A DNA stretch of 61,736 nt, counting the filler. It is 14 parts of 14 records of this genome, joined end to end, with 100 filler letters (N's around TTAATTAATTAA, not from the genome) between each part and the next. Parts side by side here need not be neighbours in the genome. Positions count along the whole stretch, not along the records: positions 22,766 to 29,095 come from SRR15195285_5341; 13 more parts are not named here. One strand, given 5' to 3'. The translations under genes and the position numbers were made by a program. The notes under the pieces are model-generated. The model had not been told where the DNA came from. It ran no database searches and saw nothing but the letters and a program-made list of their open reading frames with translations. Position 1 is the first letter of the stretch. Every line of letters begins with the position of its first letter. Below, piece after piece: positions 10,736-61,207 of this stretch.

Positions 10736-13700
10736 ATGGCGCACAAGAGCCAGGTGTGGGTGGCGGATGAGGAAGATGCGTATGCGCGGGCCCAGATTCT
10801 GAACGAGAAGGACGATGGGACGACGATCGTCCAGATCGAGGGGCGCATGGGGGACACGACGCTGCCGACGGAGGAGTGCTACAAGGTCAACCCGGACAAC
10901 CAGGACGGTGGTGCGTTTGCGCGAATTTCCTGCCAGTCGCTGCCTGAGAGAGCGGTTGGAGCAGCTATAGCGGGACGCGAGGCGGTGGGCCGATCGCGAG
11001 GGCTGCCCGCCGAGCCTTGGCTTGCCTGCGGAGCGGACCCTCCTTCCTTCGTTTGCATCGCTGACACGCGGCTGCTGCCCCGCCGTTTGTTCTGCGTCTC
11101 CTCCGTTGGCAGTGAATGACAACACCGAGCTGATGTACCTCAACGACGCCAGTCTGCTGTGGAACCTGCGCTGCCGCTACCTCAGCGACAACATCTACAC
11201 CTACACGGGCTACATTTTAATCGCGATCAACCCATACAAGGACATGTCCCACATCTACCAGGACGATCTCATGTTCCAGTACAAAGGCAAGTCGATCGGC
11301 ACTCTCGACCCACACGTGTTCGCAATTGCCGACCACTCGTATCGCTCGATGAAGAACCTCGGGACCGGACAGTCTGTGATTATCAGTGGCGAATCCGGTG
11401 CTGGTAAGACCGAGACGTCAAAGATCGTCATGCGCTACCTGGCGGTGGTCGGCGGAAAATTCGGGGCGGACGGACTCGAGGGCCGCATGATGAAGTCCAA
11501 CCCGATTCTGGAGGCCTTCGGTAACGCGAAGACCCTGCGCAACAACAACTCGTCGCGCTTCGGTAAGTTCATGAAGATCGAGTTCGACCGAGACCAAACT
11601 GTCTGCTCAGCCTCCATCGATACGTACCTGCTCGAGAAGTCGCGCATCGTTACGCACACGCCCGGCGAGCGCGCGTACCACTCGTTCTACCAGCTCTGCG
11701 CGGGTGCGCGGCCCGACCTGCAGGATAAGCTGCGCCTGCTGCGCGCGGACGACTACGTGTACCTCTCGAAGCACGGCTCGGAGCATGTGGCGATCGAGGG
11801 AGTAGACGACGCAGCTGAGTTCGACGAGATGCACGGCGCGCTCGATTCCTGCGGTTTCTCGCTGGACGAGCAAGACGCGATTTTCAGACTCACAGCTGGT
11901 ATCCTCCACCTCGGGAACATCGACTTCATTCCGAACGGTCAAGACAACGCAGAGCTGTCTGATCCGGAGGTGGCCAACACAGCCGCCGAAATGTTCGAGG
12001 TCGAGCCGAGTGTCCTCAGGGCCAAAATGGTCACCAAGCTTGTGAAGGTCCGCTCAGAGCAATACGAGCAGCCAATGAACCCGCAGGTGGCAACATACTC
12101 TCGCGACGCGCTCTCGAAGGCCATATACTCGCGCATGTTCGACTTCCTGGTGTCGAAGGTCAACGACGGTCTTCGGGCTGACGCTGGCTCTGTGAAGAAC
12201 TTCATCGGTGTGCTTGACATCTACGGTTTTGAGTTTTTCGACGTCAACTCATTCGAGCAGCTCTGCATCAACTTCGCGAACGAGAAGCTGCAGCAGCACT
12301 TCAACAAGCAGATCTTCAAGCAGGAACAGGAGATCTACCTCAAAGAGGCCATTAAGGTCGCGGAGATCAAGTACCGGGATAACCAGGACTGCATCGACCT
12401 GCTGGAACTGCCCCGTGTCGGTGTCATCAACATTCTCGACGAGGAGTGCAAGATGCCCAAGGCGACTGACAAATCGTTTGCCCAGAAGCTGCATTCCCAG
12501 CACGCACGCCACCCGCGCTTTGCCGCCCCGAAGATGCACAAGAAACGCGGCAGCGGTCTAGGCGAAGCTGCCCAGAATTTCACACCGGACGAGGCCTTCA
12601 TCATCAAGCACTTCGCGGGTGACGTGACCTACTGTGTGGAGGGTTTCCTCGACAAGAACATGGACCCGCTCAACGAAGATGTTGAGAAGATGATGTTCAA
12701 CTCAGGCAACTTTTTGCTTCACGACCTGTTTCCTTATGAGGAGCCTGACCCGAACGCTCGCGGCCGCGGCCGCGGCAAGAAGAAGCAATCCGTCGGTGGG
12801 CGCTTCCTCAAGCAGCTCGGTGAGCTTGCGGACACCTTGGGCAATACTTCCTCCCACTTCATTCGCTGCATCAAACCGAACAACGCTCAGAGGCCGCTGG
12901 AGTTTGAAGGCAACAAGGTGGTCGATCAGCTGCGCTGCTCCGGCATGATGGAGGCTCTGAAGCTCATGCATGAAGGTTACCCCACTCGCTGCCCGTTCGA
13001 CGACCTCTACAGCCGGTACAAGGATCTCATGCCGGAAGAGCTGTCGAATCTTTCCCCGGCCGATTTCGTCGAGTGTCTGCTGCAGGCGCTTGAGGTTCCG
13101 CGCGAAAAATACCAGTTTGGCCTGTCTAAGGTCTTTTTTAAGGCCGGCCAGTTCGCTCTTATCGACGAGCTTACTACCAACGAGGACATGCTGGATGAGC
13201 TGGTCGTCAAGGTGCGCATCTGGCTGATGCGAAAGCGCTTCAAGAAAGCAGTTTTCACGATGGTGGCCTACAAGAAGATTTCTCAGCGACTTGACCAGAA
13301 ACGTGCCGGCGATCTGTTTGCGTCCGTTGCGACCCAGATGTGGGTCATTTCAAAAACGATGATCCCACTCGCGCGTCGAGTGCAGCGCGAAATGCGGGCG
13401 ACCAAGATCCAGGCTGCCTACCGCAGCGCAACCGATCGCGCGAACTACCTCGAGACCCGCAAAGGCGCGGCGACCCTCACCCGCTACACTCGTCGCTTTC
13501 TCCAGGCGCGCAACGCTGCGCCACTGATCGCTGACATCACGCTAGAGCGTGAGCGTCGCGAAGAGGAGGAGAAGCAGAGGCTCGCGGAGCTCAGCGAGGA
13601 GGCTCGCATGGCTGCGAAGGCGGCGAAGGATGAAGCGATGCGGCTGAAGGCGCAGGCTGCGCTGGAGCGTGCAGAGGGACGCAGCAAGGGCTCTGGTGCA

Positions 13701-14304
13701 GCCGAGGAGGCGGCGAGGGCAGAGGCTGAAGCGGCGAGGCTCCAGGCTGAGGAGGAGAATCAGAAGTTACAGGAGGAGAAGGAGAACGCAAAAAAGGAAA
13801 TGGATGCGCTGAAGGACACCATGGCAGAGCAGATGCAGAAGCAGCAGGAGGCGATGCAGAAACAGATGCAGACCATGATGATGCAAATGACTGGCACCGT
13901 GGGCGGGACCGGCGAACTGACCGGCTTGGCTGCTTCACGAGAAGAGCGCCGCCTCAAGGAGGAGATGGGCATCGAGGGTGGTGGTGGTGGCGGCGGCGGC
14001 GGTATGGTTTCAGACAAGAATGTGAAGCGCCTGGAAGAGAAGCTGAACAAGCTGTCTAACACAGTGGACGAGTTGAGGAAAGAACTCGACGAGGAAAAGA
14101 AGAAGGTCAAGTGGCTTGAGAGTCGCGTGTCCGGAGCAGGAGCGATCGGCTCCCCGTCGCGGCAGGGTGCACCGGTGCCGGGCCCAGGACAGGCGCAGGC
14201 CTCCGACGCATGGCAGCGTGCGAAATCCGCTGCTGCGCGGCAAGTGGCTCCACCTGGTGTGCCTGCGGTGGCAGGTCGCCCCGTGGTGCCGCAACGAGCG
14301 CCAC
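10736..14304 (+). CDS. Myosin heavy chain, class VI-like, 3'-truncated; exons 10736-10910 and 11113->14304
   Basis: N-terminal SH3-like segment; intron 10911-11112 (GTGCGT..CAG); P-loop GESGAGKTE, switch I NNNSSRFGK, switch II LDIYGFE, FIRCIKPN, FGLSKVFF; IQ motif (IQAAYRS); charged helix and coiled coil. Confidence 0.95.
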
Positions 14305-15091: not shown

Positions 15092-15340
15092 TTCGGGCGG
15101 AACAGCCTGTTTTTGAGGTGGGTGGGGAGCCGGGGGAGAGGAGGGCTAGGGGGAGGGTTGAGAGGATTTGTGTAGGAGGGAAACGGAGTGGTGGAGTTTG
15201 GGGTTGGTGTCCGGCGAGTCGGATCGGTTGGGCGCCTTTGTCCGCTGTGTGTGCGCTCCCTCCCCAACCACGCACCGCTGCCGTGGACAGCTGCCCGCAC
15301 GGAGCGGTGGGTGCACGTGGAATACTGTGCGCGGGGCGAG

Positions 15341-18059
15341 ATGGCGGTGGTTCCGCAGCTGCGATTAGTCGTGGCGATCGTCGGCGCATTGGCCTGGGCG
15401 GCCCCAGCGCAGGCGCAGGTGGAGTTCTGCAGCGAAGTTGTATGCGGCAACCCGGTGTATGTGGTGAATCGGGAGATGCACGACCTCAGCGTCGCGGAAG
15501 CGAACAGCAGCGTGACGGCGGACAAATGCACAGACTTCGTTAATGCAACAGGCGCCATCTTGTGGGAGGACTGCGCCTGTGGCTGCGGGGCCGCACACCG
15601 TGTGATGATCTACATCCTGGGCGTGCTGATCATCTTCTATTCGATTGTCGTGTTGCTGTTCGTGACTGGTATCAAGATTCTCCGCGCTGGGCCACGGCGG
15701 GAGTACGAGGATCTGAAGGCGGCAGGCAAGGTCCGAGAGGACACCGAGGAGATCGGCGGAGACGCTGCACGTGCTTGGATGTCCAAGTCGGAGGACGAAG
15801 TTCGAACGGACTGTGGCCTTGACGCCGCTGTCTACCTACTCCACTGCCGGCAGTGCGCAATGTTCTGGCTAGGGCAAGGCATGACGATGGGTCTCGTCCT
15901 GCTCATGACGTACAAGCTCGGTGGAGACTACGAAAAGGGCATCACCGTGTTCGCGTTTTCCTCTGCAAACCTCGCGCCTACCAATCCGGCGAAATGGCTC
16001 TCCGTGCTCGCGCAATTCTGGTTCGTCGGGAGCACGGTTGGGTTCACCATGTGGAAACAGAAGGGGATGGACTCGTACAAGCTGGAGGCCGAAGAGGAGG
16101 GCGGCCGGCACACGTCACTGAACACCGTATGGATCGCTAACGTGTCTACGGGCGCTACTGAGGACAAGTTGAAGTCATGGTTCGACTCCGAGTACGCCGG
16201 GGAAGTTCTCGAGGCGAAGATGGTCTGGGACGTCAATGCTCTGGGTCACAACATTCGCTCTCGCCGACGCTTGATCCAGAAGATCAATGCGCTCTACTCG
16301 AAGAAGGCAGATGCCGATGACGACGGTGCGGTCGCCAAGATGCAGCTGAAGATCGATGCCTTGACTGTCAAGGTGAAGGACTTAGAGCAATGGGAAAAAC
16401 CACTGCGCGACCGTCCGTTGACAGGAGCCGGGAGCGCATTTGTCACTTTCAAAACAGAAGAACAATGCCAGGCGTTTCGCAAAAGCCTGGGCGACAAGCA
16501 GCGCGGTGCATCGTCCGGAGATGCAGCGGCTCTCGCAGTCTCTAAGTGGTCAGCGGTGATGGCTCCACGCTCGGTAGAGATCTACTGGGAAAACTTTGGC
16601 CTGGAGGCATCAGACAAGTTGAACAATCAGGCCAAAGCCTGGGGCCTCACCATTGTTATGTTCCTGTTGTTCTTGCTGGCTGCACTCGGTGCGTTTTGGG
16701 TTCTAGGATTTATGTACATGGAGTTGTTGTACTGGGTCTACCCAACTCCAGATGTCGGTGAGAAACACGACGCCATGAGGAACGCTGTGGGCCCTGTTGT
16801 GTGGTATGGTGTATTTGGCCTGTTTTTCGTCATCCTTTTCCTCGGATTGGAAGAAGAAATGTCTCCAATTGTCAAGTATATCTGCAAGTTTGAATACCCG
16901 TACACGAAGAGTCTGAAGCAATCGTCATACCTGGGAAAGATCTACTGGTTCTACATGATCTACCATGTTGCGCTGAGCACAGTACTCCTTGGAGTTCTGG
17001 CACTGTGGTGTGACATACGCAACATTCCGGTTGTCGACGGTGGTTGCGAAGAGACACTAGGAGAGACTGACGCCGACGGTGCTAAGTGTCGCAACGGCCG
17101 GTACCAACTGTACGTGGAGTCGGTGGGTGCATTTCACCAAAACCGTTTGTACTTGACAGCCTGCGTCATCGATTTCCTACAGACCCTTGGGGGACTGTCC
17201 TACTTCAGCCGAAAGGCCCACACGCTCGACGATGAAGAGCTGTCGAAGTTCGAAAGCGCCGAGGACGAAGAGGACGAAGAGTTCGCTCTGGAAGACGAGG
17301 CGGACAAGTTTTTCAGCGACAAGTTCGACTACACGCGCAACTACGCCGAATCGATCGCAGTCTTCACGTCCATTTGCGTGTACTCAACCATGCACCCGAC
17401 CATGATGATCTTGGGGTCATCCTACTACGGAATCAAGTACTATGTCGACAAGTACCAGATCACCAACCTGTACAGCAAGCCACACGTTCAGTATGGACGC
17501 CGCGCCCGCACGACCACGATTTACATCCTGTGGGCACAGACAATTGCCCAGTGGCTGAACGCGGCAAACCACCTAATTCTCACACAGGATTACGCGGTAG
17601 GGGGCGCCATGACCTTTTCGGCAGTGATCATGCAGGTAGTTATAATCCTGTATGTGTACCAGCCTGAAACTCTCAAGTAAGTTCAAGCTCATGGCCGTTG
17701 ACCACAGGTAGAATCTCTGTCGCTCTAACCGGCATGCATTTCTTGGCGGATCGGTTTGTGCAGGATGAAGAAAACCATTGCCAGAACAGACAGCAAAATC
17801 AAACAACTGCAAAGCACAGATGGTGCCGCAGAGGCTGAGGCACGAGAGCTGTGCGGTGCATACAAACCACCGAAGCCAGAGAATCTTGAAGTTGGCATCG
17901 AAATTGATGTGAGTCTTGCGTGGCAGCCCATGACCTAATGCTGGCTCTTCATTCCGAGCGAGCATTTCACACGTGACCTCGGCTTGTTCCATTGCGCAGA
18001 CTGCCGGAGTAACAACGAAAGTAGATAACCCGTTGGATGAGGCCGAGGCAGATGACTGA
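15341..18059 (+). CDS. OSCA/TMEM63 (CSC1-like) mechano/osmosensitive cation channel; exons 15341-17676, 17764-17908, 18000-18059
   Basis: Family motifs CGLDAAVYL, GSAFVTF, APRSVEIYWENF and FDYTRNYA...YSTMHP...YYGIKYYVDKYQI; about 10-11 TM helices; introns 17677-17763 (GTAAGT) and 17909-17999 (GTGAGT) restore the frame. Confidence 0.88.
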
Positions 18060-19495: not shown

Positions 19496-19784
19496 NNNNN
19501 NNNNNNNNNNNNNNNNNNNNNNNNNNNNNNNNNNNNNNNTTAATTAATTAANNNNNNNNNNNNNNNNNNNNNNNNNNNNNNNNNNNNNNNNNNNNGTGAG
19601 TCAATTTTCGAATTTCAACCTGGGTGCATTCGAAGACCGGATCGTTGCGCGGCGGGGGTCTGTGCGCGCGCGCGCGCGCGGCCCGGCGGCGGCGGCGCCA
19701 CCGGCAGCCGCGGCGCCAGCGATTGTTGGAACTGTTTGTGAAGTGCAGCTGCAGCTCCCGCGTGGCCTTCAAATCGTCATCGAT

Positions 19785-22452
19785 ATGACGTCGGCAAGAG
19801 ATGAAGGCCTGCTGCGGCGCCTTGGTGACGGGGAGTCCCTCTCGACAATCGCCCAGTCGCAGGGGTGGTCCATAGAACAGATGAAGGCGTGGTTTGTTCG
19901 AATCGCAGCCAGACGCGGTGCTCCCTTTCTGCAGGTGTTTGCTCCCTCGCGTGGTCGTGTTCCTACCGAGCATGACGTCCGCATAGAGAGAGATGAGCAA
20001 GGCTTGCCCCACATCATCGCAGAGACGGACAGTGACCTGTTTTACGGATTTGGTTGGGCAATGTCTGAGGACCGACTGTTCCAATTGGACTATCTGCGTC
20101 GCAAGGCGCTAGGGAAGCTGAGCGAAATCGTTGGATCACAAGAGCTCTGCGCGTCCATCCTCTCAGATAACCGGGCTCCGACGAGTGCGTTGGAGCTAGA
20201 CAGGCTTGCTCGGACCGTCGGATTCGGACGTATTGCCGTGGAGCAGTGGCCCAGCATGGAGCCAGCAGCTCAAGCTCTGCTGTCTAGCTTCTGCGATGGT
20301 GTCAACGGGCAACTGGCTGCAGCAATGAAAGAGCACTCGCTCCCAATCGAGTGCTCGATCTTAAACTACACACCAGACACATTTTCCCCGCAAGACATGC
20401 TGGCAATCGAGACCGATTTTCGTTGGTACCTGACTGGCCGGTTCAATGGCTTGCTGTTGCCCCAATTGGCTGCAGAGAAAATCGATGGCGAATTGTTGGA
20501 CGAGTGGTTGCTTGGTGAGGCTGATGAGGAGGCAATTCTCCCAGAAGGCGTGTATGAGCCACTGCCTTCTAAACTACTGCCAGACCCTGCTACATGGTTG
20601 AAGGCTGAGCCCGTGCGAGGGGCGGTTGGGTTTGACGCGGATTCGGCGGTTGGGTCGAACAACTGGGTCTGCAACGAGCAGCTCTCCTCATCAGGAGGCT
20701 GCATGGTGGGCTCCGATCCGCATGTGGGTTTTGAGGCAGTGTCGTGCTGGTACAACGTCGCGCTGGTAGGTGGGTCGTTTGACGTCGTTGGATGCGCGTA
20801 CGTTGGCGTACCTGCCGTTATGTTTGGCCGCAATAGGGATGTCGCTTGGGGGATTACCAACAACATATGCTCTCAGCGTGACCTGTTTTGGGAGACGGTG
20901 GATGAGCGAGGCAGATTTCTACACGACGGCGAGTGGGTCGAACCGACCGTGATCGACGAAATCATCTATGATAAAGACGGTACCGAGGCATTGGCGCTGC
21001 CCGTGGTCTTCTCGCGCCATGGACCGATCGTCAACCAGGTGCTGCCAACAGCAGCTGCTGAGCTCACCACACGTGTGCAGCAGCACCCTATCGCGTTAGA
21101 ATGGGTTGCCACACACGGAGATGGGTGGCTAGAGGCGATGCTCGCCATGAACTGTGCGACTTCAGTCGAAGAGTTTCGTGAATCACTCCGACCATGGCAT
21201 TGCCCCAGCTTCAACCTATCTGTTGCTGATACGCACGGGTCTATCGGAATGGTCAGCGTCGGCCGGCTACCACTCCGTAGTGGGATGTCGACGCGTGGTT
21301 TACGCGACGGTTCTTCTTCTGCCAACGATTGGTTTGGATTCGTCCCATATGATGCGATGCCTCATGCCATCAACCCAGGGTCTCGCAACTGGCTTGGTTC
21401 GGCCAACAACAGGCTAACCCCTGACAGCTACCCATACCCTCTCGGCGGGACATTTGCGTCTGGCTTTCGCGGCAAGCGAATTCGGCAGTTGTTCGAGGAG
21501 GCGGCAAGACGCGGTGGTGGCCTCACAGTGAATGATATGGCAATGATGCAGATGGATACGCTCTCACTGCCTGCCTGTGAAGACCTACCAGCGCTCCAGG
21601 CCTTACTACACGAAGAACCGTCATCAGACAGCACCGCAATGAGTGCTGCTCGAACTGCACTGCTCTCTTGGGACGGTGATGCCAAAGTCGACAGCAAAGG
21701 CACGCTCGTCTACCGGTTCTTCATGACCGCGTGGACGCTTGGTGTGGCATCGGCAAGGTTTGCGCCGGACACCGCGCCTCTGCTCGCAGTGGAACCGCTG
21801 GCCCGTCGTCTCCTTGTGGCAGACCCCAAGCAGTGGTTCGCTGATGAAGAAGAGCGTGTTCAAGGTATTCGCGCCGCCTTCAGCTCAGCCGTAGGGAGTA
21901 TTGTGGACTCCCTTGGCCCCGACCCAAGTTTTTGGAACTGGGGTCGCGTCCATGTGATGCCTTTGCGCCATGTACTAAGTACGCTTGGTGATGGGTCGAT
22001 TGCGGACCTGGTCAATGCAGACCCAAGACCGATAGGAGGCGATATGACGACTCTTGGAAACACAGGGCAGGGTGTGTTCCTTGCACCCTCTCGTCCGCAT
22101 ACCCCTACTTTTTGCCGCGTACCCACGTACACTTAGCTTGTCAATTATCTTACGTTGCCTTAATCTGCACGTAGGTCCGGGCTACATTGCTAATACTGGT
22201 GCTGGTTACCGACATGTCGCCGATCTGGGGTCGTCTCCAGCTGGTTTGTGGATGGTGGACGGGCAGTCGCAATCGGGTCAGCTATACACACGCCACTACA
22301 ACGACTCGATCGACATGTGGGAAGATGGTGGCTTGTGCTTCGTTCCCCTCGGCGGGTTCAAGGGCGTCACCACCACTGTTTTGCGGTCACAAGCAACGGC
22401 ACTGCCAACCGCTGGCGCCGCCCGGGTTGAACGGAACCGCACGAAGCTGTGA
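19785..22452 (+). CDS. Penicillin acylase family (peptidase S45) Ntn-hydrolase; exons 19785-22071 and 22175-22452
   Basis: IERDEQGLPHIIA, GFGWAMSEDRLFQLD, nucleophile motif GSNNWV, GSDPH, FGRNRDVAWGITN, SANN, WNWGRVH. Intron 22072-22174 continues into GAGYRHVADL...GQSQSG...HY. Start taken as the first in-frame ATG. Confidence 0.92.
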
Positions 22453-23220
22453 CCGCAGGAGCCGAGCCCAGACACGATGATGCAAAAAGGGTTCACAGTC
22501 AAAATAATGTTACACAAGACCCCTCGGCGATTGGCTCTATGAACGTTGGATCATCGAATGGGCCCATCTTGCTCACTGTAGAGGTTAGAGCCACTGTTAT
22601 AGCTTGTCGCTCACCGCGAGGTACATTACATAGGTTGTCGTCTACCGCCTAAACCACACTTCTGCNNNNNNNNNNNNNNNNNNNNNNNNNNNNNNNNNNN
22701 NNNNNNNNNTTAATTAATTAANNNNNNNNNNNNNNNNNNNNNNNNNNNNNNNNNNNNNNNNNNNNTGGTGGGTTGTTCCTGGCAGGGCGGAGGCGGGTCG
22801 GGAGAATGGGCACGCTGGCCTGCGTTCGGCACCGGTGAGGGAGGAGTCAACAGTTCACATAGACTGCACTGCTTGAGTGGATTAGGTCGGGTCAGGTGGT
22901 CTCTCTCGATTGATCTGCGATTTGTGAAACCTGTAAACTGCTGTGGATGCTGGACTCACTCGGGGCCTTGTTGCCGCAGAGGCTGACCTAGTCGTGGTAG
23001 TATGTAGGAGGAGCTTCCTCCGCTGCGAGCTCCGTACCCGTGAGTGTTGTCTCCGTCCGCGGTGGCTGGTGCAGCAGGCGTGTGTCCTTGCTGCGGGACT
23101 GGCAGCGTCTGACAGGAGGTGAGTGAGCGGCTTTCCGGAAAACAGGCAGGGTGGCACATCTGGGTTCGCTGTGTAGGCGCGCGGAGCTGCGTAGAGGCGG
23201 CGGCGAGTCTCAACGCGAGG

Positions 23221-26200
23221 ATGAGCGAAGCGGATGCAGCTCCGGCGCCGACGACGGACGTCGCTGCCACGAAGGCGAAGACGAAGGGCGCGCTGCTCGG
23301 CGGCCTGCGGAGCGGGGCGCTGGAGGCGGCCGTGACGAAGATGGAGGAAGACACGGCGGCAGAGGAGGAGGCCGCTGCAGATGGAGCGCCTGCAACGCCG
23401 AAGAAGAAGAGCGCGCTGATGGAGCTCAGTGAGGAGGAGGAGGAAGAAGAGGAGATGGAGGGCGGGTGGGAGCCGCCGCCCACCTCGCTTTGGTGCTGCA
23501 CCGTCAACACTCCGCCGCGCAAGCGCAGCCTCAGCGCCATGCAGCACCCAGCGTTCGATGGCATCGTACTGCTGTGTATCGTGCTCAACTCGGTCGCGAT
23601 GGCCCTGGAGGACCCACTAGAAGATCCAGACAAACCGAGCGAGCTGACAAAGTCCCTGCACATGTTTGAGATGGTGTTCAACATCATCTTCACGATCGAA
23701 ATGGTGACCAAAATCATAGCGATGGGCTTCTGCACCAACAAGGGCACGTACCTGCGTTCTGGATGGAATGTCATGGACTTCATCATTGTCGTGACCTCGT
23801 GGCTGCCGTACATCCCCGGCGTGGGGTCCTTAGTCAACGCAAGCGGCCTGCGCTCCTTTCGACTGCTGCGACCGTTGCGATCGATCAGCCGGTTCCCCGG
23901 ACTAAAGGTGCTGGTCGAGACGATCCTGTCGGCAATTCCGCAGCTCGGGAACATCTTGCTACTGACGTCGATATACTTCATCACGTTCGGGATTGTCGGC
24001 GTGCAACTGTGGCGTGGCGCTTTCCATCACCGCTGTGGTTCCGTGGCGTTAGACGGCGAATACGTGGAGGCGGCAGAGGGATGGGATCACCACTCCAGGG
24101 CACGCCATGGCTACGAGCACCGCGACAGTGCAGTGCATGAGTGGAGCGACGGCCTGATGTGCAACTCCACGGTCCCTGTGATGGACCTCCCAGACGAATG
24201 CTTCCACATTGATTTGACCGATGAACGCCTGAACGGCGTCGGTGATGCTGGGTTTTGCAGAATGGACGTTGAGCTGATAAGAGCTGCCACGCCCGAAGTG
24301 CGCAAGCAGCTCCACATGGAGAGCGGATGTGATCCGGAAAGTGAGCGATGCATCATCTGCGAGATCAACCCGTACTGGGGTCTGATCAGCTTCGATAACA
24401 TCTTTTTCGCTTTCGTGATCATTTACCAGATCGTTACGATAACATCATGGCAGGAGTACATGTACTTTACACAAGACACCGGTGGCTTTTCCTGCTGGAT
24501 CTACTATGTCCTCTGCACGTTGATCGGTGCATATTTTCTCTTCAACCTGTTTGTCGCTGTTCTGAAAGAGAAGTTCGACGCGATCGCGGACGCGGAGGAG
24601 GATGATTCTCGATCCGATTCTGACGACGACGGGGAGGAAGAGATGCCAGAAGTGATAGTCGAATTTCTGGAAGCTCGGACTTACCGGTTGCAGTGCCCGC
24701 TGGAGGACATGCATGCACCGGAGACTTCTAAGGATTTGAAAACACGCCTTTCGCAGGACAAATACTTCGAAGACCACGTCACACATTTGACGCAGCGGGA
24801 TCGTGCAAATCCACTTGTGAACCCCGAAGACCCATGCGACCGAGTGCTGTGTTTCAAGGGCCACCCGATCGACGACGAGATGTCGCTGGTGGAAGCCGGC
24901 GTGGCTCCCGGTGACATGCTCCGCCTTGAGACTAGCGCTGTGCGACTGAATCTGAAGCTCCTGGTGCAGCACCCCGCTTTCATGAACTTTTTCACGGCAC
25001 TGATCATAGTCAACACCATCGTGCTGGCGTCTGAACGCTATCAAATGTCCGATGCGGAGATCGACTTTTTGGCGAGCGTCAACTACTTCTTGACGTTATC
25101 TTTCACATTTGAGGTGATGTTCAAACTCTTAGCATACACGCCGGGGGAGTTCGGTGGAGACACTTTTAACGTCTTCGACTTTTTCGTCGTCGCCGCTGGC
25201 TTGCTGGAGCTGCTGTCTGCAGACGACTCAGGCAGTGCGGCAGGCGCGTTCCGAGCGTTCCGTATCTTCCGATTGTTCCGCGTTCTTCGGGTCTTGCGGT
25301 TGATCAGCTTCTTGAAGCCACTCAAGAAGATTGGCCGAGTGGTTATGCGAACTCTCGGCCATCTCGGGTATATCATGGCATTGGTGCTGCTGTTCACGTA
25401 CATATTCACCATTTTGGGAATGCAGGCCTTCGGCGGCAAACTCGAGTTCGATGGCGAGGTGCCGCGGACGAATTTCAACAGCTTCTTGGACTCAATGTTC
25501 ACCGTTACACAGGTCCTAACGTTTGACGCGTGGAATGCGCCGCTATTTGACGCCGTGCGGGCGTACGGATGGGTGGCATCTGCGTATTTCTTCGTGTGGA
25601 TTTTGCTGGGAGCGTTCGTGCTGCTGAACTTATTGCTTGTTATCATTCTTGATTCGTACGTAGAAGTCGCGGAAGAAATGAAGGAAGAAGAAAAGCGCGC
25701 TTTGATCGGGCGTGGAGACGCTGTGAATCCAGGGGAAGCTACTGAAGAAAAGGCAGCCCCGACAGTCAGTGAAGATGTCCAGGATACGTTCTCAAATCCG
25801 ATGGCTGCCCACATGGGCGAAGACGACATTCGTGCGATCATTCAGGAAGTGGCAGAGGGCGAAGAATTCATGGACAGAGACCACGTAAAACAAGCCGCGA
25901 CCAGGTTAGGCATTGACCCTACCGATGACAAACTGCAAGCAATGCTTCTGGACGGTCCTGCGAGTACGAAAATCAATGTCGATGGCTTTGTTGACTGGGC
26001 GCTCTTGGAGATGCGCAAGCGACGTGGGCGAATGCGCAGCGACATGGAGGCAGTGGCTCAAGCTGGAATCGACCAGCTGGGCAACCTGTCTTCTCCTCGC
26101 ACACCAAGATCGCCAAAGGAGTGGAGCGAAGTCGACATTGCAGCTATCGACAACAAGTCTTGCGGCATCTTTGGGATGGACAACCCGTTGCGCAAAAAAT

Positions 26201-29047
26201 GCTTCACTTTGTCCCTCAGCAAAAAGATGGACCGTACCATATTGTTCGTCATTGTGCTGAACTGCTTCTGCATGGCTCTGGACAGTCCGTACGTGCAGCC
26301 AGGTTCCTCTCGTGCAATCTTCCTGAAGTGGATGGATATTTTCTTTACATTCATATTCGTTGGAGAAATGTTGATCAAAATCATCGCCACAGGGTTCCTT
26401 TGGAACGGGGAGCCCTCTTATCTACGCGATAGTTGGAATCGGCTAGATTTCATTATCGTTGTCATATCCTGTGTTGACTTCACTTTGACATACATTCTCG
26501 CAGTTGATGGCGACATCGGCATCATGAAGGTGTTCCGTGGTGTTCGTTGCGTTCGTCCTCTACGGATGCTCACGAAACTGCGCGGCCTACAGATGTTGGT
26601 CAACTCGCTCCTGGCCAGTATCACGTCCCTCGCGAACGTCTTCCTGATGACAATGATCGTCTGGTTGATTTTCGGTATCTTGGGCATCAACCTATTCTGC
26701 GGTCAATTTTGGCACTGCACAGACGGCGCCGCGTACGGCATTGAGGACTGCGTCGGTCCGTTCTTGAACGAGGATACTTTAGAGATCGAACAGCGGCGAT
26801 GGATCAATCAGGCGTCGAACTTTGACAACATTGGAGAGAGCATGTTTGCATTGTACGAGATCATGACCCTCGACGAATGGATCATGGTCGCCTACAATGG
26901 AATTGACGCGGTCGGCGTTGGGAAGCAACCCCAGTACAACTACCAGAAACTTATGGTGTTGTACTTCATCACCTTCCTTGTGGTCTGTAACTTTCTGTTC
27001 CTCAATTTGTTCATTGGCGTCATCTACGAAGAGTATGTTGCGCTCAAAACCGCTGGCTTACGGGGCCTGAAGCCTGGGCAAAAGGCTTGGTATAATGTGC
27101 AGATGGCAGTCAGCAACGCGAAGCCAACTGTGAGGGCCGTGTTAGCCAAGGGAGCCGCAACGGGTGGGTTCAAAGAAAAGGTGTACACATTGGTCACCAG
27201 CGCGCATTTCGACCACGCCATCATGTTGACTATTCTGGCAAACTGCATTGTCATGTCTATGTCGTACTACCAGGAGCCGGAGTGGTACACAGCACTGTGC
27301 GATGTACTCAACTACCTGTTTACATTCATCTTCACAGTGGAAATGTGCCTGAAGATTTACGCACTGAGCTTCGCGGGGTACTGGCTGGAACCGTGGAACC
27401 GTTTTGATTTCGTAATTGTGATGCTGTGTCTGGTGGACATTATTGTGTCAGATATCCTGCAACTCCAAAGCTTCTCGTCATCGGTCTTCCGTCTTTTCAG
27501 GATCGGGCGTGTCCTGGGACGAGTCGCGCGGATGTTCCGCGTAATCAAGGAGGTGCAGTCACTCAACCAGATCTTCCAAACTCTGGTCGAGTCGCTACCA
27601 GCCCTGTTCTACATGGGTATACTTGTGGTGCTGATCATTTTCATTTTTTCGATTCTTGGTATGCATCTCTTCGGCCGGCTGAAGTATGGGGACGTGATTG
27701 GACCCAACGCAAACTTCGAGTCGTAAGCTCGCATTCGAACATCCGTGTTGTTTCACCAGATGGCTGCTAAAAAATTCGGCGTTTTGCTGCGCATGCAACG
27801 CAGGGTTCCTGTCGGTATGTTGACACTGTTCGGATTTGCGACCGGGGACGCTGTGACACCACTTACTCACGACTGTATGGTTCAACCACCCGACTGCGAC
27901 CCTGGTGCGTGCTTCCAACACTCCGCGTCAGAATTTACACACTTTCTCTTACCTGCTCAGCGTGTGTCGTGCGCTAGACTACGACAACTATGGCAACAAG
28001 GTTGCGGGTGGCAACTGTGGCGACCCGTTAGCAGCTCAGCTTTTCTTTGTCTTCTACGCGCTGGTGATGCTATTTATTGTCATCGAGATGTTCGTCAATG
28101 TCATTATGGAAAAGTTCGAGGAGCAGGCGGAGCTGTCCCACCTGCCCATCACAACCAACGACATTATGGACTTCGCGGATGTCTGGTCAAGATTTGATCC
28201 GAAGGCGCACGGCCGCATCCCGGTAGAGCTAATGGCCATCCCACCGGATGATCCTCGGCTCGAGAAGACGCAGGACAATCTCGAAGGAGTAGTTGTGTAC
28301 CCTGGTGGGGAGCAAAAGTTCAAGAAGGGCTTTCTGGAGGAGCTGTCCGAACGCGTGCCGCTGCTCGGGGCCAACCCAGAATTCGAGGAGGAGCTATCTG
28401 AGAAGGTGAGTCCGCCAGGCGTTCGTCTGCTGCCCAACCACCGCTGCTGCGCACATTGCAGGATGTCGGACGCACCGCGCCTAGTGCTGAGTAGCTTCTT
28501 TTGGTTGGCCCAGTTGGGGACGAAGAAGCTGGAGTGTCCGGGTCCGACTCCTGAGGACAGACAGAATTGGTTGAAGGGGCTGCGCGTCCCGGCAGGCAGG
28601 AGCAGGACGGACAGACGCTACCTGAAGCCCTCACATATTGAGACGGCCAAGTCCATGGAGAGAGCTGACGATTACTTCACCTTCCATGAGGTGTTGTATG
28701 CGCTGTGCGAGAGGCGAGCGGGCCGGTCGATGCCGCCTGCTAATGAGGAGATCGATAATATACGGGTGCGTGCCGCCGCTGCTGCCGCCTCCACCGCCGT
28801 CGTCTCTGCGCAGCGCTCCACACGCCGTTGATGAATGGTGTATCCACAGCCCGTCACCATTACCGACGCGTGCACTAACCATTGCTACCGCACGTTTGTG
28901 CCGCAGATCAAGTTGAGTCTGATGATGCCAACGCTGCGGTTGGAGACGATCGACGAGATCACGAAGGACCAGAAGCGGCAGAAGGCTGAGAAGCGGGCCG
29001 CAATATTCGGGGCGATGCAGGGCGCCGCAGCTGGCAAGGACAGTTAA
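23221..29047 (+). CDS. Four-domain voltage-gated cation channel alpha subunit (Nav/Cav superfamily); exons 23221-27722, 27804-27904, 27978-28405, 28514-28765, 28907-29047
   Basis: Four S1-S6 repeats with Arg-rich S4 (LRSFRLLRPLRS; FRAFRIFRLFRVLRVLRL; FRGVRCVRPLRML; FRLFRIGRVLGRVARMFRV), YLR.xWN.xDF motifs, four P-loops and a C-terminal EF-hand-like WSRFDP. Four GT-AG introns restore the frame; a likely 5'-UTR intron lies at 23119-23176. Confidence 0.95.
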
Positions 29048-30375
29048 GATAATATATCATATGATAAAACGATTCAATCACGCGCAACACACATANNNNN
29101 NNNNNNNNNNNNNNNNNNNNNNNNNNNNNNNNNNNNNNNTTAATTAATTAANNNNNNNNNNNNNNNNNNNNNNNNNNNNNNNNNNNNNNNNNNNNACCAC
29201 CACCACCACCACCAGCAGCAGCAGCGGCGGCGGCGGCGGCAGGCTGGAGGACCATGGCCATGAGGCGCTCTTCGCGGAGCTGCAGGCTCGACCCCGCCCC
29301 GTCTCCCCCACGCTGCCGGTGGTGGACTTCGGCAAGAAGCAGCGGCGTAAGCAGAGCCCATAGGCAGACAGCGACGCGCAGACAGATACAGGTAGAGAGA
29401 TAGAGATAGAGCGAGCGAGAGGGTGTGTGCGTGTGGGAGAGACGGAGAGACAGAGAGGCAGTCAGTCTCCTGCAGACAGTGAGCGCAACGCAGAGAATAT
29501 TTCTCACCGCCGTTTGGACCAAAATCGCTTGGTGTTGCGGTTGCACAGCTCGCGGCGCAGACACGGCAGCGGCGGGGGCTCGGGGAGCAGCAGCAGCAGC
29601 AGGGGGGGCAGCGAGGTGCGCAGCGTCCTTTACCCTGTTCCTTCCGCTAGGTCAGGCACTGCGTTCTGTCTCTGCATTGATGGTTTGAGTTCCACGTCAG
29701 GCAGAACCGCAGTAGGCGTCACGCATGTCCCGCGGGACTGCGACACTGGGCCGCCGTGCCCTGCCCTGCTCTGCTCACACACGTTGCTGCGTGGGCAGGT
29801 CGCCGGCCGCCGCAAGCTGTCCAGTCGCTGGCACGGGCTCGTACGGCTCAGACGCCGACATCCTGGCGATGCTGCAGCCGCGCAGGCCCATCGCAGACGA
29901 CGCACCGGGTGGGGCGTTCTTCTCCGCGAAAGCGTTCGAGACGCACAGCATGTTTCACGGCGCGTCCGTTCGGCTCTTGCACGCAGCGCCGGACACCGCC
30001 AGCGCGGCGACACGCCCAAACGCGAGCTCAGAGCCTGCGCGATTCTTTTAAGGCGACTGGTGTGCTCAGTTTCCGACATCAGCTTGCCAGTCAGCTCGAT
30101 GCGTCGGCAAAACAGCGCTCACAGCGGTAAATTGAGCCACGCAAAGAGCCCAGTGTCGGCAGGGCTGCGCTTTGGGCGATGTACGAGTACTGCAGCGTAG
30201 CGGCGCCCTCCGCAGCGATGACTGCCTGATGCACAGACGTCCACCAAGCTCCAAGAATGCTCACCAACTGCCCTTCGGTCATAGCAGAGAGATACAATGC
30301 GTGCAATTCGAGGAAACTGGTTTGGATTTACGACATCGCTCGTGCTTCTGTCCGTGCGCCAGTCTGGACCGCGCT

Positions 30376-36749: not shown

Positions 36750-39700
36750 GGAAGAGCAGGAGCCCGCGGAGGAGGAGGACGAGGAAGAGGGAGAGCACGC
36801 GGTGGTCGAGGACGAGGGCGAGCAGGAGAAGGCAGAGGATCAGAAGGAGGAAGAGTAGGAGCTCTAGCCTCACTGCCGGCTCGGATTGAGCACCCACCGG
36901 GCCCGGGCTGGGAGACCTATCGCCGCAAAGCCGCGGAAGCCCGCGGCCGCAACGAGGAACGGCACATCACCGCCGGACCGCGTGTAGGTGGACGGACCGT
37001 CGGGCTGCTGAGAGACCGTGCAGTGGACAAGCACGTGATCTTCTGCATCGACAACTCGCGGAGCATGCGAGCAAAGGACGCGGTGTCGGACGGCGGTGCA
37101 GCGCTGCGCCGTTGCGACGCTGTGTTCTCGTGCGTTCAGCGGATGGCACAGGAACACGTCATAGTTTCGCAGTCCATGACGCTGCGGTATTCGGTCATCT
37201 TGTTCGAGGCAAAATTGCACGACATCGTGATTGGCCTTCCTCTGCACAAGTTGGCGCCGGCTATCGCCAACATGCGGAAGATTTCACCTGTCGGAGGCAC
37301 GAATTACTCGTGTGGATGGGATGCTGTTCGAATTGCTTGCGAGCTGGTGAAAGCCGATCAGCATGAAGTTCTATTTCTATCTGATGGCTGCCCAGACGAC
37401 AACGATCTGGGGACGCTCGGTGCACACGAGGACACAGAAATTGATGATGTTACGTGCACAGCAAGGTGGGAGTGCACTATTCGACATTTGGCCTCGCAGT
37501 ATCGCGAAGACCTTACCGTGCATGCGATTGCCATTGGCTCGGAGAACAGCGCGTACCTAGAAAGGGTTGCCAAGCTTGTCGATATGTATGGACGTGTCGC
37601 GGACCCAACCGCTGGCGAAGTCATATTTGGACGACTCCTGGACATCCCGTTTCTCGAACGCTTGGCGAAACTTGTTACTGGAGCAGTGCGCAGTGACCCA
37701 GGCGTGGTATTCAGCTCGTCAGGAGAGCGTGCGGTGGGAAGGTATCACAGAATTAATCGCATGGATTGTGCTGCCGGTGGCTACTCAACATCAAATGACA
37801 AGAATTTGGAAGGGCTTTTCCCGGCTGATGTCAAGACGGAACGTAGCGAGCGAGTCGACGACTTTACTGAAATGGCCGCCGTCCTTGCGCTGAGTGCTCC
37901 TCTAAGGGAGAAGGTCCTAAGGGAAGGGCAAGCAAAATTGGAAGCATTTAGGGCCTGGCACTCTCATGTACAGGAGATAGTAGAGGCTAAAGAGGAGGCC
38001 AGACGAGAAAGGAAGCGGGCCAAGCGGGCTGCAGAAGAAGCTGCGCGGGAAGCCGCACGGGTGAGACAGGAAAGACTGGACGCAGAGGCAGCTGCGCGGG
38101 TGCCGCAAATTATCCAGACCATCAAAGAAAATGTGAAGGATCGTCAGAAGCCGGCAGTAGCAGTACAGAGATCAGGAGTTGTGAAGGAAGACCCGTGCTC
38201 GTGGGACGAGTTGCTGCCGAAGCTAGCAGATGCTCAAAAGAAACGGGAGTCGAAGAAGCGCCAAAAGGAGGCGAGGCAACGCCAGCGAGATCTGAGGAGT
38301 GTGCTCAAGGTGGGCGGTGTCACCAAGAGTGATGTTAGCGACGGTGCAACCAAAAGCGATTCTGATGTAGCGCCAAAGGCTCACAGAAAGACGGTGAGTT
38401 TCGCAGCTGTTATCGACGATATAGACCCAGAGCCGGAGCCGGATCCGGAGCCGGAGCTGGATTCAGATTTGTCTGATGCATCAGATGGAGCAACAAAGCA
38501 GTCAACAAGCCTCTCAGATACATTCTCGATCATCAGTAGTTCCATCAGCAGTGGAGGCAAACGCAGCAGAGAACCAAAGTTTCAGGAAACGGCGTACCTT
38601 GAAGACTCAGTAGACTGGGAGAAGCATGCCAACTCAGAGAAAGCGTTCCGCCTGAAAGAGACCAATCGCGGCGGATGGAGCACCGGCACCTATGAGGAAA
38701 CGGTAAAGTTCTGTGACAAGCCCTTCGCCAAGGGTGGTCAGCGGAATGCGTTTCACATAACACTTCCCAGAGATACAAAGCACAGGTACGCAACTACTAA
38801 GGAAGGCAAACACGCTGCACACCATGTTGCAAAGGAGAGCCGCTGGAAGGGTGGAGACTTGCACCAGTGGAAGTCTGACTACACTAGTGAGAAGAAAGCA
38901 ACGAATCTCGCGACGAGCTTGGTCAGAAAGTTCACTAGAGAAGTCCTGGCGGCATCAGAGGTCTTCGCTCGGCAGAAAAATCTGCGGATCACCGGCGCGC
39001 CCCCGCAACCTTCTATTCTACAGTTTGAGCTCTATGGCATCAAAGTGAAGGGCTCTGAGGACCGAGTTGTTTGTGTCGAACGGTATTTGGAAGGCGAGTG
39101 GCAGAAGCGCAACGGGAACAACGGATATGTCCACAAAGAGTCGGCGGAGACGCTGACCTGGGAGGGGCTGATGCCCCACGCGTTCTCACACTGGACATAT
39201 GAGGACTCCCTCAAGACCAAGAGCCAAGAGGGAGATGTTGTGTGCTTAGTGTGCGACATTCAAGGGGTTGGCACGGACTGGACCGACGTGGCGATATGCA
39301 CGGAGGACCGACGTTTCGGCAGCACCGATTTGGGTGAGGTCGGCATACAGAACTTTTTCCGCACGCATCGCTGCAACTCGTTGTGCAAGCTGCTGGACCT
39401 GACCTATATCAAAGGCCCGGCTCGTGGCGACGAGAATGACCTCTCTGCCTCCATCATAACGGCCACAAGCGCGATAGAGATCATCAAGACCCGGCACCTC
39501 AACGAGCGCAAGGAAGAACGCGACATCGACACGCTTGAGTTGCAGAAGGCGTACAAGCACGGAACCAAAGAGCCAGGCCATTATCCTGGGACAGTGAAGC
39601 ACACTCACGATGGGGTTGTTCTTGTGACCAGTGTAGGAGATAGCACTGGTATTCTAAAGGCCAACCCTGCTGGCGTCACTGCATATCGTCGTGCTGGCAT

Positions 39701-40121
39701 CGAGGTCAAGAGAACGCACAAACTCTCTGGGGCACAGCTCCAGGCCCAAAATGCAGAGCGCATCGAGAAGAAGAAGGAGAAGGCGCTAGAAACGCTTCCG
39801 TGTGGGAGGAAGATCTCGAAGAAAGTCTTCGCGATGACGCCGAAGCAGTTGAAAAAGGAGCTGAAAAAGTATCAGATCAAATGGCCTGGGCGTGGCGGTG
39901 TGGACGAGAGAGCGTGGGCTGTGCCTGGTGCGTCCGATGTCGGCATGTTGCACTCGGTTCGAATGGAGTTGCTTTCTGGGCTGGCTGAGGCCATGGAGAA
40001 ACAGAAGCGCGCTGAGCAGGATAGAATCGCGGAGGTGGAACGTGAGCGGCAGGAGGTCCAGAGGAAAGCTGAGGCATGGAGGATTTCCACACGAGAACCT
40101 TACTCATCTGAGGATGAATAG
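36750..40121 (+). CDS. vWA domain + alpha-kinase (eEF2K/MHCK family) multidomain protein, 5'-partial, no visible introns
   Basis: Frame is open from the contig start (GRAGARGGGGRGRGRARGGRGRG). MIDAS motifs IDNSRSM, GGTNY, LFLSDG; alpha-kinase motifs PFAKGGQRNAF, VAK, ERYLEGEWQKRNGNNG, AFSHWTY, CDIQGV, TD, FGSTDLG..GI..FF..H.CN.LC. Confidence 0.9.
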   Translation, partial: GRAGARGGGGRGRGRARGGRGRGRAGEGRGSEGGRVGALASLPARIEHPPGPGWETYRRKAAEARGRNEERHITAGPRVGGRTVGLLRDRAVDKHVIFCIDNSRSMRAKDAVSDGGAALRRCDAVFSCVQRMAQEHVIVSQSMTLRYSVILFEAKLHDIVIGLPLHKLAPAIANMRKISPVGGTNYSCGWDAVRIACELVKADQHEVLFLSDGCPDDNDLGTLGAHEDTEIDDVTCTARWECTIRHLASQYREDLTVHAIAIGSENSAYLERVAKLVDMYGRVADPTAGEVIFGRLLDIPFLERLAKLVTGAVRSDPGVVFSSSGERAVGRYHRINRMDCAAGGYSTSNDKNLEGLFPADVKTERSERVDDFTEMAAVLALSAPLREKVLREGQAKLEAFRAWHSHVQEIVEAKEEARRERKRAKRAAEEAAREAARVRQERLDAEAAARVPQIIQTIKENVKDRQKPAVAVQRSGVVKEDPCSWDELLPKLADAQKKRESKKRQKEARQRQRDLRSVLKVGGVTKSDVSDGATKSDSDVAPKAHRKTVSFAAVIDDIDPEPEPDPEPELDSDLSDASDGATKQSTSLSDTFSIISSSISSGGKRSREPKFQETAYLEDSVDWEKHANSEKAFRLKETNRGGWSTGTYEETVKFCDKPFAKGGQRNAFHITLPRDTKHRYATTKEGKHAAHHVAKESRWKGGDLHQWKSDYTSEKKATNLATSLVRKFTREVLAASEVFARQKNLRITGAPPQPSILQFELYGIKVKGSEDRVVCVERYLEGEWQKRNGNNGYVHKESAETLTWEGLMPHAFSHWTYEDSLKTKSQEGDVVCLVCDIQGVGTDWTDVAICTEDRRFGSTDLGEVGIQNFFRTHRCNSLCKLLDLTYIKGPARGDENDLSASIITATSAIEIIKTRHLNERKEERDIDTLELQKAYKHGTKEPGHYPGTVKHTHDGVVLVTSVGDSTGILKANPAGVTAYRRAGIEVKRTHKLSGAQLQAQNAERIEKKKEKALETLPCGRKISKKVFAMTPKQLKKELKKYQIKWPGRGGVDERAWAVPGASDVGMLHSVRMELLSGLAEAMEKQKRAEQDRIAEVERERQEVQRKAEAWRISTREPYSSEDE

Positions 40122-57248: not shown

Positions 57249-57499
57249 NNNNNNNNNNNNNNNNNNNNNNNNNNNNNNNNNNNNNNNNNNNNTTAATTAA
57301 TTAANNNNNNNNNNNNNNNNNNNNNNNNNNNNNNNNNNNNNNNNNNNNGGGGGGAGCGGTCGGCCGCGCGCTGGTTCGGAATGGCTTTTTAGATCTACGT
57401 GCGCTGCGCAGCGCGCCAGCCAGGGGCGGCGTGATGCTGGCTGGGCGCATGGGTGACCACGTGGCGTGAGCGCTGCGCGGCCGTTACTGCTGGGCACGG

Positions 57500-60400: not shown

Positions 60401-61207
60401 ATGAAGGAACAACTGCTTGGCATCTGGACGGCCGTCTCGGAAACTTCCAAGACAGGGCTCTTTGACAAGCTGCCTACGAAAAAAGAGTGCGTCTCATTTC
60501 GCTGGCGTGCTCCTCTATGCTCAGCGATTGTGACCTGCATCCGCATTCAGCCCGCACTCAGTTCTCGGCGACCTCTGCCTTGCATTAAACTGGTGGCGTT
60601 GCACCACGCAGCTTACCTGACTATTTTCAGATTATCGCACAGCCGATCTCCCTCAAGGAAATCAAACGTAAAATCAACAACGGGGAGCTGAACACGGTTG
60701 AATCCGCCAAGGAGAAGATTGACCTGATGTTCGCAAACGCTCGACAATATAACATGGAAGGCTCCGACATTTTGCAGGACGTTGATGCGATGGAGGTGAG
60801 TGCAGCGGCGTTCGTTAGTCTACATCAGTCCCATCGTTCTTGCTCCTACTTGCGTTTTCCACTGGGCACCTGAGCAGCCCACGTGTGTGACTTTGCAGGC
60901 AGCAATGATGCAACACCTCGTCGCGCTCGGGGCGAAGCAGCCCAGGAACAAGTCGTCGCAACAAGTACCGCTCGCAACGGACAACCGAGTAGAACCATGG
61001 AACCAGCCGGCGGCCGAAGTTGGCCACGGTGGTGACGCGATGTCGCAGTATGCCGACGATACTGCTGGATTGTTCAACGACGATGTAGATGGAGAGGGTG
61101 GTCATACCTATGGAAATGATATGGCAGACGATTACTCCAACCCATATGGCATAGGTGATGAAAGCTCGGCGGGGCGGTCGAAATTGGTGTTAAAGCGCAA
61201 ACGTTAG
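57500..61207 (+). CDS. SNF2: SWI/SNF ATPase of the Snf2/Brahma (SMARCA2/4) subfamily; exons 57500-60486, 60612-60795, 60899-61207
   Basis: QLQ-like and HSA regions, GILADEMGLGKTIQ, DEGH, LLTGTPLQN, TRAGGVGLNLQ, QAMDRAHRIGQ. Two introns reveal a bromodomain (LPTKK|DLPDYFQIIAQPISL...NARQYN). Confidence 0.95.

Follow-up and report, generated by a model that had tools for sequence, protein, structure and literature searches.

The 61,736-nucleotide stretch of DNA analysed here (the window) encodes, at 23221-28831 on the + strand, a predicted four-domain ion channel whose pore loops place Thr, Asp, Asp and Asp (T/D/D/D) at the selectivity locus of domains I to IV (DI to DIV). Taken together, the evidence makes it probable that this is a genuine, maintained voltage-gated channel of a distinct protist clade, with a T/D/D/D pore that we infer to be permeable to Ca2+ with weaker discrimination against Na+, and with linker modules specific to its lineage.

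The channel gene and its exons

Rather than a single stretch of chromosome, the window consists of 14 short contigs of about 3-7 kb joined end to end. Twenty-six runs of N occur as 13 pairs, each spacer consisting of 44 N, TTAATTAATTAA and 44 N (for example at 22666-22765 and 29096-29195). Because the contigs are concatenated, gene neighbourhood across the spacers is meaningless and contig ends may cut genes; the channel gene lies entirely within a single contig (22766-29095). A long open reading frame (ORF) on the + strand, as for all features described here, extends from 23113 to 27726. Its first ATG in translation is at 23221, and the start Met encoded there is shared by P0001, a homologue 94% identical to the window protein. 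The spliced model joins three exons in frame, giving 1818 residues with a stop at 28831.

Exon 1 (23221-27722), defined by the ORF, the Pfam Ion_trans matches and the P0001 start, encodes the N-terminus, repeats I to III and repeat IV up to the beginning of the pore loop. Intron 1 (27723-27803; 81 nucleotides, GTAAGC...GCAG) interrupts a Ser codon. It is followed by exon 2 (27804-27904), which carries the pore loop of repeat IV with the motif T-G-D-A-V, by intron 2 (27905-27977; 73 nucleotides, GTGCGT...CTAG) and by exon 3 with the rest of the coding sequence (27978-28831), comprising IV-S6 and the C-terminal tail. Exons 2 and 3 thus supply the end of repeat IV. The boundaries were read from the sequence and the in-frame joins, with matches to Ion_trans and GPHH where exon 3 begins, and from two homologues: P0004 is continuous through the intron 1 junction, and P0380 (162 amino acids) is 90% identical to model residues 1481-1612 and spans both splice junctions gap-free. 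The P0380 alignment shows the DIV exon proposed in the first-pass annotation to be correct, and introns of only 81 and 73 nucleotides leave no space for an alternative DIV exon.

Pfam Ion_trans (PF00520) matched the protein in four stretches (E 4e-203), which bears out the earlier description of the gene as a four-domain channel. A GPHH match in the C-terminal tail fell below the threshold (E 2.5e-4), and the Pfam search gave no IQ or Ca_chan_IQ match in the tail. Homologues match the model as far as residues 1612-1624 or so and again from about residue 1721; P0183, for example, matches residues 564-1624 and next only 1721-1790. The tail at 28060-28831, after model residue 1625 or thereabouts, therefore probably contains at least one unrecognised intron.

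A T/D/D/D selectivity ring

Translation of the ORF, together with the DNA at 27600-28100, reproduced the four pore loops reported in the first-pass annotation: T-I-T-S-W in DI, T-F-D-A-W in DII, T-L-D-E-W in DIII and T-G-D-A-V in DIV. The locus residues are the second Thr of the DI motif (24442-24444) and the Asp residues of DII (25525-25527), DIII (26872-26874) and DIV (27847-27849). The pore-loop Trp at locus +2 is kept in DI to DIII; in DIV, where the sequence, the exon join and the alignment give Asp-Ala-Val (27847-27855), its site is occupied by Val (27853-27855).

The register of the ring was examined in two alignments. In phmmer alignments with solved Cav3.2 and Cav3.1, the DI Thr faces the Glu of T-L-E-G-W, the DII Asp faces the Glu of T-Q-E-D-W, and the DIII Asp faces the Asp of S-K-D-G-W. 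When the spliced model was aligned by MAFFT with its 120 best homologues, the ring columns of the homologues read EEEE in 69, EEDD in 34 (all named T-type channels included), DEKA in 4 (insect and spider para Nav), SESE in 3 (volvocine algae, namely Volvox and Pleodorina), and QADD, EDDD, EDDE and EDET once each. T/D/D/D was in register in both alignments, and the reference rings against which the ring was first judged (EEEE, EEDD and DEKA) were recovered in the expected form in the MAFFT columns. Among the 120 homologues and the window protein, Thr occurs at the DI locus only in the window and in P0001-P0006.

The same columns gave the residues adjacent to the ring, which are Ser, Ala, Glu and Ala at +1 in DI to DIV, respectively. 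The ring contains no Lys, and the residue at DII +4 is Ala, so the 'sodium beacon' Glu is absent.

The locus Asp of DIV without a following Trp was found in the window model, P0004, P0183, P0380, P0006 and P0137. The sequence A-T-G-D-A-V is identical in the first four of these, all of which carry Val for Trp; the replacement is Ala in P0006 (by alignment) and Phe in P0137. Among 249 other four-domain channels (114 from the homologue alignment and 135 from the representative-library survey), the DIV Trp was missing in 8, with Tyr in seven and Val in one. One review describes the Trp ring as complete in each of the channels it shows, apart from DI of Cch1p (PMC6259924). With regard to the superfamily of four-domain channels with six transmembrane segments per domain (4x6TM), the window protein has the four Ion_trans repeats and S4 segments with Arg or Lys at every third position, and three of the four ring Trp residues. 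As judged from these sequences, loss of the DIV Trp is a rare variation inside the superfamily and does not exclude the protein from membership.

Conservation of the ring in a distinct clade

Further relatives were sought by an unindexed search over 1.84 billion representatives, which yielded 24,649 proteins of four-domain or related type (E <= 0.001); the best 150 were examined. Relatives with this ring, which the first-pass annotation had proposed to look for, were found. Every clade member whose sequence extends over DI, nine in all (the window model, P0001-P0006, P0121 and P0126), has Thr at the DI locus, at identities of 36-94%, and none of the 249 other four-domain channels examined does. 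The DII locus Asp was present in 10 of the 10 members covering DII. The DI, DII and DIII motifs are identical to those of the window in P0001 (94% identity), P0002 (82%) and P0003 (66%), and are near variants in P0004 (55%) and P0005 (46%). The most distant of the six, P0006 (36%), has T-T-T-S-W and T-Y-D-M-W, with a shifted DIII motif, M-G-E-W. Four clade members came from among the best 150 of the 24,649 proteins: P0121, a fragment with T-I-T-S-W and 83% identity; P0126, kin of P0006 with Thr in DI; P0183, which is N-terminally truncated and carries D/D/D with A-T-G-D-A-V in DIV; and P0137, an odd partial member. Across the clade, conservation is strong in the pore helices, at the locus Asp residues and in the S6 segments.

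Phylogenetic trees were built with two programs, and neither tree contained a Cch1 or NALCN sequence. FastTree was run on 68 rows, 53 of 121 having been removed as at least 70% identical to a kept row, and placed the seven Thr-bearing sequences in one group with Shimodaira-Hasegawa (SH)-like support of 100 and a stem of 0.63. IQ-TREE was run as a quick search under LG+G4 on 48 rows picked by hand from 259. It recovered an enlarged group of nine, to which P0126, P0183 and P0137 had been added, with support of 100 in the SH approximate likelihood-ratio test (SH-aLRT) and a stem of 0.53. Neither tree placed animal Cav3 (itself a group with support 100), the Cav1/2 pair or para Nav inside the clade.

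Among solved structures, the best matches were Cav3.2, Cav3.1 and Cav3.3 (E 4.8e-174 to 1.2e-164), at about 30% identity to Cav3. Solved Cav3, Cav2, Cav1 and Nav channels spanned E 1e-174 to 1e-126, and NALCN was the weakest four-domain match (about 4e-53). The ESM Atlas returned only generic Ion_trans clusters below 0.9, with Haptophyta the commonest phylum for the top two, and was uninformative.

The close relatives originate from environmental assemblies and one single-cell genome. The homologue P0005 is labelled EukProt SAG31, and a SNF2 protein encoded on a separate contig shares 97% identity with a EukProt COSAG02 protein; COSAG02 and SAG31 are picozoan single-cell genomes (bioRxiv 10.1101/2025.05.06.652364). 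The nearest relatives of the channel that bear a name are of this picozoan origin. By these matches the window most likely comes from a picozoan or a close relative, which presumes that all contigs share one genome. Picozoa are related to red algae. Red algae are listed as having no 4x6TM channels (PMC6259924), and a literature search pairing Picozoa with calcium channel found no relevant channel literature in the records and texts it reached.

Four charged voltage sensors

The description of intact S4 sensors given in the first pass held for all four domains. A regular-expression scan located the DI arginine repeat at 23851-23880 (also seen in the alignment columns), the DII repeat, with six Arg at every third position, at 25252-25299, and the DIII Lys/Arg repeat at 26527-26565. 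In DIV the C-terminal part of the Arg/Lys repeat lies at 27520-27549, with further Arg upstream in the translation. The S4 windows contain 6, 8 and 7 basic residues in DI, DII and DIII, respectively, and at least 5 in DIV. In the same alignment columns this charge equals or exceeds that of Trichoplax Cav3, Nematostella Cav3, fly Cav1 and para Nav.

Predicted folded domains in the cytoplasmic linkers

A ubiquitin-like (beta-grasp) domain was predicted in the cytoplasmic I-II linker (24640-24957) by AlphaFold2 and Foldseek. The AlphaFold2 model, from a 7-row alignment, had a mean predicted local distance difference test (pLDDT) score of 82.4, with 66 of 127 residues at 90 or above; after 20 initial residues of low confidence it adopts a ubiquitin-like fold in the order beta-beta-alpha-beta-beta. 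Foldseek returned 240 matches in the PDB at E <= 0.001. Among the best matches listed, nearly all were ubiquitin, NEDD8 or ISG15 and the rest were other ubiquitin-like domains, with E about 1e-4, a probability of 1.00 and a target template-modelling (TM) score of about 0.8. Neither the I-II nor the II-III linker gave a Pfam match even at E <= 10, and a PDB sequence search with the I-II linker gave a single weak match, to a redesigned ubiquitin (E 1.7). The domain is thus assigned to the ubiquitin fold by its predicted structure, and falls outside the Pfam ubiquitin family by sequence profile.

A hidden Markov model (HMM) of the I-II domain was searched against about 380 proteins and matched only its six source sequences (P0001-P0005 and P0121), with no match in the other approximately 250 four-domain channels collected; this result bears on the absence of the domain elsewhere in that set and is no independent confirmation of the domain itself. 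Among the proteins searched, only the window's subclade appears to have the ubiquitin-like domain. A folded domain of this kind within a channel I-II linker was not found described in the literature searched, where both terms co-occur only in work on NALCN-FAM155A-UNC79-UNC80, and the linker domain may be a more novel feature than the ring.

In the II-III linker, AlphaFold2 and weak Foldseek matches tentatively point to a degenerate EF-hand-pair lobe (25804-26032). The model of the 173-residue query had a mean pLDDT of 65.1, rising to 75-88 in a helical core at residues 50-125. Nearly all the Foldseek matches listed were EF-hand proteins, at E 0.05-0.3 with none at or below 0.001. The core resembles a single EF-hand lobe whose loops look non-canonical.

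More distant clade members differ in their linkers. P0006 carries precomputed Pfam EF-hand and cyclic-nucleotide-binding (cNMP-binding) domains there, and P0183 starts with what looks by eye like an EF-hand loop. As a group, P0006, P0126 and P0183 have no ubiquitin-like domain in their linkers, which hold EF-hands and a cNMP-binding domain. The differences between linkers suggest a modular exchange of regulatory domains. The N-termini of P0002 and P0003 bear an IQ-like motif, which the window protein lacks.

Comparison with known channels

The window protein shares with Cav3 (EEDD) the four repeats, charged S4 segments, Asp in DIII and DIV, and a long, cysteine-rich DI turret. It differs in the DI Thr, the DII Asp, the DIV Val in place of Trp, the ubiquitin-like I-II domain and its position outside the Cav3 group. 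Its ring also matches neither the EEEE of Cav1 and Cav2 nor the DEKA of Nav1, the latter because DIII holds Asp and no ring position holds Lys. The alpha-interaction domain (AID) of the I-II linker is reported only in the animal high-voltage-activated (HVA) clade (PMC5824947). NALCN has EEKE or EKEE and reduced S4 charge, whereas the window ring has no Lys and its S4 segments are charged; a NALCN-like leak channel was rejected on these two grounds.

CatSper (DDDD) shares an Asp-based ring with the window protein. CatSper channels are assembled from single-repeat subunits, whereas the window protein has its four repeats in one polypeptide. Ciliate subclade Ic, in which D/D/D/D is the dominant filter, likewise has an Asp-based ring; its members have at least one S4 poor in Arg and Lys (PMC5824947), in contrast to the four charged S4 segments and the neutral DI residue found here. 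Fungal Cch1 (NEEE) resembles the window in combining three carboxylates with one neutral residue, in DI in both cases. Cch1 differs in lacking S4 charges and in having Glu where the window has Asp; Cch1p also lacks one pore Trp, in DI, and the window loses that of DIV (PMC6259924). Nav2 (DEEA) similarly has three carboxylates and one neutral residue, the neutral residue being in DIV in Nav2 and in DI here.

The non-animal four-domain filters TDEE, TEND, SESE and RSDD are known (Verret 2010, as cited in PMC6259924). The TDEE, TEND and SESE filters have a neutral polar DI residue like that of the window protein; for TDEE and TEND the likeness is drawn from the filter strings. Among protists E/E/E/E is dominant, with D/D/K/D, A/G/K/E, S/S/K/E, D/K/T/D and the ciliate Ic D/D/D/D as variants (PMC5824947). 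The representative-library survey (139 proteins) added odd rings including SDEE, QADD, ADSD and SSDA. Unnamed four-domain channels (P0198, P0191, P0129, P0065, P0237 and others) were seen with SSDA and Val at DIV +2, RSDD, QADD and ADSD, and EDEE was seen in 11. To judge from these sequences, the environmental sequence space of four-domain channels is much more varied than that of named channels.

A TDDD ring was not found in the literature searched, which included the available texts of PMC5824947, its supplement and PMC6259924; spellings with slashes were unsearchable and Figure 3 of PMC5824947 was unreadable. On this sequence comparison T/D/D/D is a new conserved variant within an already variable family of protist channels. 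The first-pass annotation had suggested a channel class with unusual selectivity. That suggestion stands as far as a distinct and conserved clade (support 100) is concerned. It does not stand as a claim to an unprecedented ring, a neutral DI residue with acidic residues elsewhere being already in print (TDEE, TEND, SESE), and by analogy with characterised pores the ring rule predicts an ordinary Ca2+-permeable cation channel and no new selectivity class.

Proposed function and alternative readings

Pores with acidic residues in both DII and DIII (EEEE, EDEE, EEDD, DEEA and others) are calcium-selective or non-selective, and Na+-selective pores carry Lys in DII or DIII; NEEE is counted among the calcium-like pores, and EEDD is much less Ca2+-selective than EEEE, passing about one Na+ per five Ca2+ (PMC6259924). 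A ring without Lys and with acidic DII and DIII therefore predicts a Ca2+-permeable or weakly selective pore. In the proposed mechanism, depolarisation would move the four S4 sensors and the pore would open. A ring of three carboxylates without Lys would still bind divalent cations, and Ca2+ would pass, probably with lower Ca2+/Na+ discrimination than in EEEE channels and with a selectivity for Ca2+ equal to or below that of EEDD T-type or DEEA Nav2 pores. Such a channel would serve fast Ca2+ or cation signalling in a small flagellate; motility control is a speculative example, by analogy with ciliate and algal channels. The linker domains (ubiquitin-like here; EF-hands or cyclic-nucleotide-binding domains in sister lineages) would act as lineage-specific regulatory or docking modules beside the DI and DII gates.

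Several points weigh against this reading. The prediction of Ca2+ permeability applies rules drawn mostly from animal channels, and because a change of turret loops is enough to make a Ca2+-selective Cav3 channel selective for Na+ (PMC6259924), the ring is not decisive. DII lacks the +1 Asp known as the 'calcium beacon', and with this and the DIV Trp both missing, the geometry of the filter may differ from that of any solved channel. Both trees were built by fast methods, and the deep position of the clade is a weak one: sister to a ciliate-containing group in FastTree (83), and collapsed in IQ-TREE. The taxonomic assignment draws on a match from another contig and presupposes a single genome for all contigs, and the gene model is uncertain at the C-terminus beyond residue 1625 or so.

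It is possible, if unlikely, that loss of the DI carboxylate and the DIV Trp has produced a monovalent pore, either Na+-selective or non-selective for Na+ and K+, that supports Na+-based excitability. Three short Asp side chains with a neutral Thr make a weaker field than EEEE, and the DI motif T-x-T-S-W resembles the bacterial sodium-channel motif T-L-E-S-W except at the locus residue. The missing 'calcium beacon' (a term from PMC6259924) points the same way, as does the fact that EEDD pores already pass Na+ and can become Na+-selective through turret changes alone (PMC6259924). However, neither DII nor DIII has the Lys that is tied to Na+ selectivity (PMC6259924), the 'sodium beacon' Glu at DII +4 is replaced by Ala, and Glu at DIII +1 puts a fourth carboxylate close to the ring.

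A bolder proposal, which we regard as rather doubtful, is that these proteins form a private Picozoa-type class of channel. It would depart from every solved channel in two ways. The ring without the DIV Trp would give a filter geometry, and with it a permeation profile, unlike those of Cav, Nav or NALCN, and the ubiquitin-like domain beside the DI gate would tie gating or turnover to ubiquitin-binding partners. Sister lineages would have traded this domain for EF-hands or a cNMP-binding domain, and the I-II and II-III linkers would be sites into which sensors are plugged.

It is improbable that the protein works chiefly as a voltage sensor or scaffold, conducting little and using its linker domains to couple voltage to a cytoplasmic partner. 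The ubiquitin-like fold is predicted directly after DI-S6, the corresponding linkers of sister lineages hold signalling domains of other kinds (EF-hand and cNMP-binding in P0006), and a pore Trp has been lost in DIV. Against this, the clade strongly conserves its pore helices, S6 segments and locus Asp residues, which argues for a working pore, and no partner is known.

Still less can be said for a protist orthologue of the animal T-type channel, a low-voltage-activated Ca2+ channel in which the DI residue has drifted. This would fit the best structural matches (Cav3.2, Cav3.1 and Cav3.3), the Asp residues of DIII and DIV, as in EEDD, and the long, cysteine-rich DI turret. It is very improbable given that the clade falls outside the supported animal Cav3 group in both trees (100), that identity to Cav3 is only about 30%, that DI holds Thr and DII Asp rather than Glu, and that a ubiquitin-like domain is predicted in the I-II linker, where Cav3 carries its gating-brake helix (PMC6259924).

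Although the assembly is a fragmentary one of short contigs, an artefact (a wrong base at 24442 from sequencing or assembly, a pseudogene, or mis-splicing in DIV that conceals a canonical filter) is effectively excluded because the DI Thr recurs in 9 of 9 independent relatives of 36-94% identity and in 0 of 249 channels outside the clade, and it is opposed as well by the single open frame of the 4.5-kb exon 1, the in-frame join of three exons, the gap-free match of P0380 over both junctions, introns too short for a hidden exon, and the identical A-T-G-D-A-V of four sequences.

Other contigs in the window

The proteins encoded on other contigs, which include a myosin motor (myosin head, 10971-14304), an OSCA/RSN1-type putative calcium-permeable channel (weak matches, 15176-17680), an alpha-kinase with a VWA domain (36750-40121) and an SNF2/Brahma-type ATPase (57470-60691), are plainly eukaryotic. 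A contig of its own carries an ORF (19596-22136) with a full-length penicillin amidase (N-terminal nucleophile, or Ntn-, hydrolase) domain (Pfam E 8.5e-147); in a set that is eukaryotic elsewhere, it may reflect horizontal acquisition of the gene or the presence of a bacterial contig in the bin.

Significance

Fast electrical and Ca2+ signalling depends on four-domain channels, and the rules that relate their ring to selectivity are known almost entirely from animals. The practical weight of the present finding is modest until a current is recorded, and since filter diversity in protists is documented, it extends a known pattern and does not break it. The gene comes from a little-studied lineage, and its conserved ring, neutral in DI, with Asp at the other three positions and no DIV Trp, could test how general the logic of EEEE, EEDD and DEKA is.

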